Shown: positions 49,823 to 52,117 of the stretch, piece after piece | Layout: every line of letters starts with the position of its first letter | Numbering within the stretch: position 1 is the first letter of the stretch | NCBI GenBank assembly: GCA_964016885.1 | Contig: OZ024741.1 | Location: 325,500,001 to 325,564,000 of the forward strand | Length of the DNA stretch: 64,000 nucleotides | Source of the DNA: Eledone cirrhosa | Lineage: Eukaryota | Direction of reading: 5' to 3' | The notes under the pieces: model-generated | Seen by the model: only the letters and a program-made list of their open reading frames with translations | The model's database searches: none | Told to the model about the DNA's origin: nothing | Position numbers and translations under genes: made by a program

Positions 49823-51352
49823 ATTATATTTAGAGTATACACTCAAAGAGTCATTTACAATTCATTAGCTCAAAGAAAGAAGCATTTCTGAGCCGTGCAA
49901 TACAAGTTAATATAAATTAATTGTTTCTACTTTTGGCACAATTACCCAGTGCATTACTGGTACTTTATTTTATCGACCCCGTAAGGATGAAAGGCAAAGT
50001 CAACCTCGGCGGGATTTGAACTCAGATCGTAAAGGGACGTAACTATGCTGGAAAGCATGGCGTCCGACCCTCTACCGATACTGCCAATCCACCGCCCTAG
50101 CCGTGGTACCTAGACAAATTTAAATTTCAAAATTCAAACCTTTTCCGCAGATCAATCTGAACCTCAAAATCAAAATAGGTTTCGCAAACGATGGTTTAAA
50201 AGTGAAATAATCAATTTTCTGTGCTTTAAAAATTAGGTTACTTCACCTCGAAAAAATGTTGAAGGTCTGGTTTACGAGCACAAACGCACGAGGTTTTGCA
50301 CTCGGTTCTTCCAGCTCACTAGCCTATCTCATACTCATGGCGCTAGAAATAACAGCCGTTTATATGGGATTAAAAATTAGCTCAACCGAGGGAGCAGTAA
50401 TATATTATATTCAGAGTATACACTCAAAGAGTTATTTACAATTAATTAGCTCAAAGAAAGAAGCATTTCTGAGCCGTGCAATACAAGTTTACTGGGTACC
50501 TATTGATAAGTACAGAAAATTGATTATTTCACTTTTATACCATCGTTTGCGAAACCTATTTTGATTTTGAGGTTCAGATTGTTCTGCGGAAAAGGTTTGA
50601 ATTTTGAAATTTAAATTTGTCTAGGTGCCACGGCTATTTGCCAATATGAGTTTGTGTATATTGATTTATTATTTTTTAAATCGATACAGGCAGGCTATAT
50701 TTATTTGAATTAATTTGTTTCATTCTAGCTAACTTTTGTCTTTTACAATACAAACACTTAGATGTTTATCATATATTAATTTATATTAACTTGTATTGCA
50801 CGGCTCAGAAATGCTTCTTTCTTTGAGCTAATTAATTGTAAATGACTCTTTGAGTGTATACTCTAAATATAATATATTACTGCGCCCTCGGTTGAGCTAA
50901 TTTTTAATCCCATATAAACGGCTGTTATTTCTAGCGCCATGAGTATGAAATAGGCTAGTGAGCTGGAAGAACTGAGTGCAAAACCTCGTGCGTTTGTGCT
51001 CGTAAACCAGACCTTCAACATTTTTTCGAGGTGAAGTAACCTAATTTTTCTGGGTACCTATTGATAAGCACAGAAAATTGATTATTTCACTTTTAAACCA
51101 TCGTTTGCGAAACCTATTTTGATTTTGAGGTTCAGATTGATCTGCGGAAAAGGCTTGAATTTTGAAATTTAAATTTGTCTAGGTACCACGGCTATTTGCC
51201 AATATGAGTTTGTGTATATTGATTTATTATTTTTTAAATCGATACAGGCAGGCTATATTTATTTGAATTAGTTTGTTTCATTCTAGCTAACTTTTGTCTT
51301 TTACAATACAAACACTTAGGTGTTTATCATATATTAATTTATATTAACTTGT
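49823..51352. mobile_element. ORF-less 558-nt monomer array with inverted arm, no canonical hammerhead
   Basis: ctgggtacctattgataag at 50492 and 51050 (period 558); 49823-50489 is the opposite orientation, interrupted by a SINE at 49920-50098 (-); (TA)n on both sides. Confidence 0.8.
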
Positions 51353-51456
51353 ATATATATATATATATATATATATATATATATATATATATATATATAT
51401 ATATATATATATATATATATATATATATATATATATATATATATATATATATATAT

Positions 51457-52117
51457 ATCATAGATTGAGTTAGAAACTCAAAATAGTCTTTTACAATTAA
51501 CTAGCTCAAAGAAGGGAAGCTTTCTGGGCCGTGTAATATGATTGAATATATGAGAGGGATGAACACTGATACAAGTACACATGTGTTCCAATTGCAAATG
51601 ACCAAGTTAGCTAGGATGAAAAAAATACTAATTTAAAACAATATGGATTGCCTCTCTCGATTTAAAGTAATAAATCAATAAAAATAACAAACCTATATCG
51701 GGCAACTGCCTTAGATATCCGGACAGATCTAAATCTGTTACGCAAGAATTATTAAGTGAAAGCCACAATTCCTGTGCTCTTCTGCGGGTATCCAGGAAAT
51801 TTGTACCTTTCACTCTTAAGGATCTAAGAAAACTTAACGATATGCTGATATAAAAGCACATGCGCCTAGCGCGTCTCATACTCATGCTGCTAAAAATAGC
51901 AGCGGGCTTTATGAGACTAAAGTAAGCTCTACATATGGAGCCGAGAATATCATAGATTGAGTTAGAAACTTAAAATAGTCTTTTACAATTAACTAGCTCA
52001 AAGAAGGGAATCTTTCCGAGCCGTGTAATATAATTGAATATATAAGCGATGAACACTGATACAAGTATACATGTGTTCCAATTGCAAATGACCAAGTTAG
52101 CTAGGTTGAAAAAAATA
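51457..52117. mobile_element. ORF-less 492-nt monomer x1.3, a distant homologue of the 558-nt monomer
   Basis: catagattgagttagaaact at 51459 and 51951; colinear shared blocks with the 558 family (tttacaattaa.tagctcaaagaa, aagttagctag.atgaaa, tcgatttaaa, tctcatactcatg). Confidence 0.8.

Follow-up and report, generated by a model that had tools for sequence, protein, structure and literature searches.

Two insertions into (TA)n lie side by side at positions 49819-52117 of the window, i.e. the whole stretch of 64,000 nucleotides of Eledone cirrhosa DNA that was analysed, the first being a head-to-head insertion with a 558-nt unit and the second an array of a 492-nt unit. As an earlier note on this DNA had claimed, both consist of tandem, homologous monomers: 50485-50796 recurs at 51043-51354 with 97% identity (558-nt direct repeat), and 51455-51627 recurs at 51947-52117 with 94% identity (492-nt direct repeat), the two units being ~70% identical and in opposite orientation on the plus strand. 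The inverted arm described for the 558 element is present at 49819-50489, the (TA)n target is seen in the flanks, and the proposed kinship with hammerhead arrays of the same window is supported. The view that the region lacks an ORF holds in that no RT/EN similarity was found, and needs qualification in that the region is overlapped by a pair of stop-to-stop frames, 117 and 113 aa long. The functional strand, which the earlier note had left undecided, is now fixed: the 558 element has its sense strand on plus in the right arm and on minus in the left arm, and the 492 element has it on minus. All 22 strings given earlier as paired stems are present in the region, several of them having been read on the antisense strand.

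The features, with tracts and hammerheads as read from the sequence, are as follows.

49756-49822 (start approximate), no strand: (TA)n target tract adjoining the long 3' end of the 558 left arm
49819-50489, minus: inverted (left) arm of the 558 element, with its long 3' end (end2) at 49819
49918-50099, minus: ~180-nt dispersed repeat in the 558 left arm, replacing unit positions 318-455 (~139 nt)
50485-51354, plus: main (right) arm of the 558 element, 1.56 units, whose short 3' end (end1) meets (TA)n at 51354
50495-50629, plus: hammerhead copy 1 of the 558 element; helix I 5' strand 50495-50502, core UUGAUAA 50503-50509, GAAA 50551-50554, GUC 50619-50621, helix I 3' strand 50622-50629 with two G-U wobbles
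50622-51179, plus: predicted 558-nt monomer between both GUC cut sites, from their coordinates
50797-50877, plus: 81-nt tail separating the two recurring 3' ends of the 558 unit
51028-51187, plus: hammerhead copy 2 of the 558 element, intact; upstream pseudoknot strand ~51028-51052, helix I 5' strand 51053-51060, core UUGAUAA 51061-51067, stem II 51068-51070/51106-51108, loop II partner strand 51071-51092, GAAA 51109-51112, a 63-nt helix III insert, GUC 51177-51179, helix I 3' strand 51180-51187
51352-51458, no strand: (TA)n tract on which the 558 element and the 492 element both have a 3' end
51455-52117, minus: 492 element, 1.35 units, with its long 3' end at 51455
51714-51815, minus: 492-element hammerhead; upstream pseudoknot strand ~51815-51793, helix I 5' strand 51792-51785, core CAGAAGA 51784-51778 (U4A), G12-U13-A14 at 51741-51739 (A13U, decayed), GUC 51724-51722, helix I 3' strand 51721-51714 with one mismatch

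The left-arm hammerhead of the 558 element is broken, a 15-nt deletion near 50227 having taken the helix I 5' strand and the core, and the upstream pseudoknot strand of copy 1 is cut off by the inversion junction. The dispersed repeat at 49918-50099, which we take to be a tRNA-type SINE, has many copies in the window. The same repeat sits inside several retrozyme copies, and lies on the element sense strand in all three 558-family cases checked.

Type I hammerhead layout in both units

In both units a type I hammerhead layout is present on the strand whose 3' end adjoins (TA)n, in the same order in both families, i.e. helix I 5' strand, 7-nt core, stem II, GAAAC, hairpin, GUC and helix I 3' strand. 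Helix I has 8 bp, stem II has 2-3 bp with a 29-90-nt loop, and helix III is long, with a 12-64-nt insert; the 8-nt segment of helix I and its complement ~60-130 nt downstream vary together between families. The window contains two such motifs 558 nt apart in the 558 right arm and only one in the 492 element, the predicted cuts in the former, after 50621 and 51179, being spaced by exactly one unit (558 nt). The earlier note had reported no hammerhead; CTGAnGA is indeed absent from both strands of 49823-52117, but a type I hammerhead with a variant core is present, and was missed by that string because the core differs from it at one or two letters.

A hammerhead descriptor, drafted after the motif was known, matches the sense strand of five of seven family representatives (the misses being an E copy and a divergent 492-related copy), none of the seven antisense strands, and none of the dinucleotide shuffles (0/300 each). 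When folding is constrained to the hammerhead, with the pseudoknot omitted, the result lies 2-3 kcal/mol from the minimum-energy fold. G12-A13-A14, A15.1-U16.1 and H17 are present in both right-arm 558 copies and in the family consensuses; the 492 copy of the window fails in this regard (A13U). A first reading of helix I by eye, as a pistol- or HDV-like pseudoknot, was dropped once GAAAC...GUC had been recognised.

An Rfam scan of the whole window gave nothing at the gathering score, and a scan by E-value (E<=10) gave microsatellite matches together with Hammerhead_HH9 at E=3.3, which, being on the wrong strand and in the wrong place, was treated as chance. Twister, pistol, hatchet, HDV and hairpin ribozymes had no Rfam match at the gathering score or at E<=10. 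The silence of Rfam is uninformative, since canonical CUGAUGA hammerheads at 62290 and 62946 are missed as well; in the case of the 558 and 492 units, variant cores and long inserts in loops II and III account for the failure of both fixed-string and Rfam searches.

Core variants, covariation and a predicted pseudoknot

The genome-wide collection of homologues that the earlier note had proposed was made by two DNA searches of the animal's own genome, yielding 2673 and 2522 first-look candidates, relatives included, of which 40 each were scored. Diverged relatives in the flanks led to families D (547 nt), E (~597 nt) and C, besides the 558 and 492 families. The 558-family core is UUGAUAA, i.e. 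C3-G8 is exchanged for U3-A8, and the 492-family core is CAGAAGA (U4A). Family C has UUGAUAA, family E, as read from an alignment, has the same core with another N7, and family D, which is 72-78% identical to the 558 and 492 units, has a canonical CUGAGGA at the same position. Whole-unit identity and invariance values of E and B2 take in flank from outside the unit and were set aside. The literal core consensus, C3-U4-G5-A6-N7-G8-A9, is therefore present in sister family D and absent in the 558 and 492 families, which are for this reason classed as variant hammerheads and not as canonical members.

The variant states predominate across the genome. Among exact matches to a 22-nt motif of the 558 type (n=79), 78 have U3-A8, one has U3-G8 and none has C3; at position 4 of the 492-type motif, likewise 22 nt and matched exactly (n=558), A occurs 533 times, U 21 times, and C and G twice each. 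On a tree of the 492 family (41 copies and two outgroups, two of 45 rows having been dropped for short alignment), the U4 copies cluster in sub-lineages and at least four changes are forced, the tree giving no polarity for them. A clan-wide pattern that leaves the seven core letters free, and excludes family D, has 2195 matches, with G5, A6 and A9 kept in 1909 and U3-A8 in 999. By hand count, the first 100 matches listed comprise 57 with U3-A8, 23 with CAGAnGA, eight with CCGAnGA, seven with U3-G8, four with a mismatched 3-8 pair and one canonical core, the 3-8 pair being Watson-Crick in 89; A9U was counted, again by hand, in six of the first 100 matches of a second clan-wide listing. Of 160 matches in the 492 family, 113 have an intact GAAA, and A13G was seen in 13 of the first 100. 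Some sub-lineages carry changes that are probably inactivating, and this, together with the decay of the 492 copy in the window (A13U), suggests that cleavage may be weak or dispensable.

The U3-A8 swap is already published: such hammerheads occur in Penelope-like elements (PLEs) of Schistosoma (PMC4209133), and a U3-A8 core is reported to be active (PMC3088659). A scan of pairwise mutants, made on one type III hammerhead, found the U-turn rescued by G3-C8 only, other single and double mutants being low (PMC9901934), from which it may be that both U3-A8 and U4A are weak. No U4A hammerhead was found in the searched text of the literature, text of a supplement included; the text of PMC4209133 and PMC3088659 mentions U4C, for a viroid, and not U4A. 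The literature search found no paper on these families. In our judgement the 558-family hammerhead is probably active and activity of the 492-family hammerhead is doubtful, slow or condition-dependent cutting being predicted for the variant hammerheads. In a 2017 paper, small hammerhead variants of PLEs are reported to cleave as dimers.

Covariation was assessed in 18 hand-picked related sequences of five families, from which the structure itself was also derived, so the resulting figures are not probabilities: helix I has changes on both sides in five of its eight pairs, with 97.9% of cells paired, double-change pairs number nine overall against 5.9 +/- 1.1 in shuffles (2/500 as high), and slid controls pair 26-56% against 94% for the true register. 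In the same sequences the 3-8 pair is U-A in ten, C-G in eight and unpaired in none, and the basal helix III pairs A15.1-U16.1 and C15.2-G16.2 are invariant. Each of the five family consensuses retains G5, A6, G12, A14, the A15.1-U16.1 pair and a letter other than G at position 17, while helix I turns over. The earlier proposal that selection acts on the RNA fold is supported. Folding z-scores of the window copies fail to tell the strand (558 unit, -2.14 on plus and -2.03 on minus; 492 unit, -3.25 on minus and -3.81 on plus), and those of the family consensuses lean towards the sense strand (-3.35 vs -2.52 and -7.1 vs -4.12, with 30 shuffles). Three contig sets from a single sequenced sample yielded neither ends nor strand, which says nothing about expression.

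The beginning of loop II is predicted to form a pseudoknot with the strand immediately 5' of helix I, the strands involved being two of the stems listed earlier, TTTTCTG/CAGAAAA and GTGAA.../...TTCAC. The predicted arrangement is conserved in the five families with weak covariation, double changes occurring in one of seven pairs of the inner helix and none of seven of the outer helix (with family D misaligned by one column). The pseudoknot helix would be ~18 bp, and the linker back to stem II is 13 nt in the 558 family, 9 nt in the 492 family and 3-6 nt in family D. With so long a helix and so short a linker, a fold switch or assembly across units is possible, and in family D the full helix looks too long for stem II to close in cis. 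Pseudoknots between stems I and II are described in all three hammerhead types, in ~40% of examples, and in type II hammerheads at the corresponding position (PMC3088659); by analogy, the predicted pseudoknot may correspond to the type II one, read in another permutation.

An unrelated 655-nt array at 61265-63400 has, by eye, the same two-part loop II pseudoknot, two 3' ends and a tail hairpin. It carries canonical CUGAUGA at 62290, 62946 and 61619 (minus), with a minimal palindromic helix III, and no homology to the 558 and 492 units was detected in it.

Insertion architecture and a candidate mobiliser

The copies have variable 5' ends and terminate on (TA)n at two fixed positions, 81-82 nt from each other. 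In the 558 tail a GCTC...GAGC hairpin begins 7 nt past end1 (50803-50828), and end2 has a similar hairpin after it. From the predicted cut site to the long 3' end there are 266 nt in both the 492 (B) and D families, although their unit lengths differ by 50-60 nt, and 256 nt in the 558 family.

Insertions were surveyed at 30 loci each of the 492 family and family D, selected solely by the long 3' end (two loci, L193 and L194, may be one insertion). With end2 as the anchor of the main arm, the inverted arm of the 492 family ends at end1 in 13 of 30 loci, at end2 in none and elsewhere in seven, and is lacking in ten; in family D the counts are 18, one, four and seven, respectively. The insertions are of the Penelope-like type, with a partial tandem, an inverted 5'-truncated copy, a tail at one end, as described for PLEs (PMC8557442), and a microsatellite target. 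None of the 5' ends lies within 10 nt of the predicted cut site (0/30 in the 492 family, 0/30 in D), nor do they pile up; ten of 30 in the 492 family and 24 of 30 in D lie past it. Since insertions run across the cut site, the template is probably an uncleaved multimer or a circle. The tail has its counterpart in an anole PLE, where two internal RT start sites bracket it; insertion by that PLE in vitro was unaffected by hammerhead mutants (PMC11167929).

A coding Penelope-like fragment of possible relevance is close by.

54300-56778, no strand: coding Penelope-like fragment with a Hydra-clade endonuclease, neighbour of the 558 and 492 elements, having the GCTC...GAGC hairpin in its 78-nt tail
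55645-56169, minus: ORF piece of this fragment

The family of the 55645-56169 fragment is abundant (58298 candidates, 150 scored), and its long ORFs have RWK, DKT and CxCX5C motifs, which are marks of the Hydra clade (PMC8557442, section 11). The elements of this family have a hammerhead, CUGACGA or CCGACGA, ~30 nt ahead of the short end, a (TA)n target, and a 78-nt tail with a GCTC...GAGC hairpin 8 nt into it; in the 558, 492, D and E units such a hairpin follows both 3' ends. Tail length, hairpin and target are common to Hydra element and unit; no longer homology was found between them, and none directly between unit and coding-element pLTR, so that the assignment of the mobiliser rests on one small hairpin, the tail length and the target. 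Hydra-clade PLEs are the candidate class of mobiliser. ORFs of this Hydra-clade family reach 719 aa, its 3' UTR is long, and CCGACGA (U4C) is a frequent core of its hammerhead.

When 11 inverted pairs of the window were compared by eye, an RCTC...GAGY hairpin was clear in three that bear hammerheads (52934, 54298 and 61259), loose in 39246, and absent in 42060 and in four core-less pairs (12972, 26383, 36945 and 45418), the remaining two being uninformative. A Naiad origin is conceivable, since Naiads are without canonical hammerheads and target (TA)n (PMC8557442).

From motif layout, helix I covariation, strand, fixed 3' ends and insertion architecture, all of which are read off the DNA itself, the following course may be proposed. 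A read-through transcript spanning more than one unit would give a multimer, which the pseudoknot-braced hammerhead would cut after GUC, probably slowly, to give unit-length RNA that may circularise as in other retrozymes. A borrowed protein would then nick (TA)n, and reverse transcription would start internally, from two points on the RNA that are separated by 81 nt and lie immediately 5' of a GCUC...GAGC hairpin each. One cDNA would arise per start site, and joining of their 5' ends would produce the head-to-head insertion.

Readings of the two elements, and neighbouring insertions

The units are non-coding and tandem, each with a type I hammerhead, as in retrozymes, and the RT plus GIY-YIG ORF of an autonomous PLE is lacking, i.e. 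the element is non-autonomous. The preferred reading, to which we assign a probability of about 0.85, is that the 558 and 492 units are two families of non-LTR retrozymes with a variant-core type I hammerhead (U3-A8 and U4A, respectively), for whose copying into (TA)n a Penelope-like RT-endonuclease, probably of the Hydra clade, is likely responsible.

It is possible, and to be taken seriously if tentatively, that the hammerhead is vestigial and no longer cuts, its fold being kept for protein binding or packaging and uncleaved tandem transcripts serving as the template; this departs from the preferred reading only in the cleavage step and is most plausible for the 492 family. The presence of U4A in 533 of 558 motif matches of the 492 type, the recurrence of A13G, A13U, A9U and U3-G8, the position of the 5' ends, never within 10 nt of the cut site (0/30 and 0/30) and often past it (10/30 and 24/30), and the indifference of anole PLE insertion in vitro to hammerhead mutants (PMC11167929) are all consistent with loss of cleavage. 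A circular template, however, would also yield insertions past the cut site, and the retention of G5, A6, G12, A14, A15.1-U16.1 and non-G17 in the five family consensuses despite turnover of helix I, the compensated exchange of the 3-8 pair, and the clustering of U4 copies in sub-lineages of the 492 family (at least four changes forced on the tree) argue against this reading.

The tail and inversion architecture, being as in coding PLEs, could also mean that the units are truncated copies, namely 3' ends (pLTRs) that have come away from a coding Penelope-like element, and not independent retrozymes, and retrozymes have been proposed to derive from pLTRs (bioRxiv 10.64898/2026.07.22.740005). 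This is improbable, in that upstream of a unit there is always another unit and never an ORF, with arrays of 2-3 units, and in that tblastn with a Hydra protein query against the window and 120 loci gave matches only in separate neighbouring insertions. Very improbable is the earlier suggestion that an unrecognised ribozyme, or a host nuclease, processes the units: no Rfam family matches and several conserved hairpins outside the hammerhead are without an assigned role, but the full hammerhead layout is present, sister family D is canonical, and the canonical hammerheads at 62290 and 62946 escape Rfam too. With a hammerhead, missed by the CTGAnGA string, as the probable processing motif, the candidate new ribozyme class is removed.

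The retrozyme reading accords with what is described for animal non-LTR retrozymes (Cervera and de la Pena 2020, PMC7229834), which are non-coding tandem units, rich in AT, that each hold one type I hammerhead and are present in thousands of copies alongside hammerhead-bearing PLEs. By contrast with those retrozymes, the core here is non-canonical and helix III is long and stable, not minimal; the units, of 492, 547, 558 and ~597 nt, are longer than the 150-450 bp given there, which is a descriptive and not a mechanistic range. Retrozymes in that work are expressed both in linear and in circular form, as monomers. The compensated change of C3-G8 to U3-A8 is shared with the Schistosoma PLE Cercyon (PMC4209133) and with the natural variants of Perreault 2011 (PMC3088659); compared with the hammerheads described there, the present ones have a full three-helix motif plus a predicted two-part pseudoknot helix of ~18 bp.

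Likeness to Hydra-clade PLEs, as described in section 11 of Craig et al. 2021 (PMC8557442), includes insertion into (TA)n, a hammerhead close to the 3' end, and the partial tandem with an inverted 5'-truncated copy and a tail at one end, the tail here being longer than the 30-40 bp given. Compared with the Hydra-clade PLEs of this genome, the tail is similar (81 vs 78 nt) and its hairpin is common to both, but the units have no ORF, homology is not alignable beyond the hairpin, and the hammerhead helices differ. The anole Poseidon PLE (Frangieh et al. 2024, PMC11167929) is alike in having two internal RT starts that bracket the tail, an AT-rich target, and uncleaved RNA usable as a template; it belongs to another clade and its starts lie in an AC-rich stem-loop, whereas here a GCUC...GAGC hairpin follows each start.

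The matched families (canonical, U3-A8, U4A and U4C) form a panel that could show to what extent core changes are offset by a pseudoknot, and whether cleavage is required for retrozymes to spread; the tail hairpin common to the units and the coding Hydra element is a candidate signal for internal initiation by the RT. A bolder proposal, speculative and unlikely to hold, is that the pseudoknot rescues or gates variant U-turn cores, ~2000 copies having served as natural mutagenesis (U3-A8, U4A, U4C, U3-G8), that the ribozyme assembles only across neighbouring units or after a fold switch, and that the RCUC...GAGY hairpin fixes both RT starts. Cuts would then hit multimers and spare the monomer circle, an active U4A hammerhead would broaden the consensus, and many 'hammerhead-less' Penelope-like elements may hide such cores. 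The PLE tail would, on the hairpin proposal, be explained by the hairpin's duplication, with a copy lying a few nt 3' of either start site.

Further Penelope-like RT/GIY-YIG ORFs of the window lie at 45526-47568 (minus, 680 aa) and 27753-28673 (minus, 306 aa); by their motifs both are presumably Neptune-like, their tails differ, and element 45418-47602 has no CUGAnGA. The inverted-arm (TA)n insertions at 12972-13669 and 26383-26628 are without a hammerhead core, have the tail motif GTTTC-N-A-N-ACACGATTTC, and possibly belong to another PLE group. Short PLE-type insertions bearing hammerheads, at 35050-35700, 39150-40558 and 52850-54224, have ACTC...GAGT in their tails, i.e. a compensated form of the hairpin. 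Non-LTR retrotransposon RT ORFs are present at 3666-6116 (plus, an 816-aa frame) and 19520-21763 (plus, broken, in several frames), and diverged tandem arrays occupy 57593-58697 and 60703-60994, their periods being close to 107-110 nt and 41 or 82 nt.
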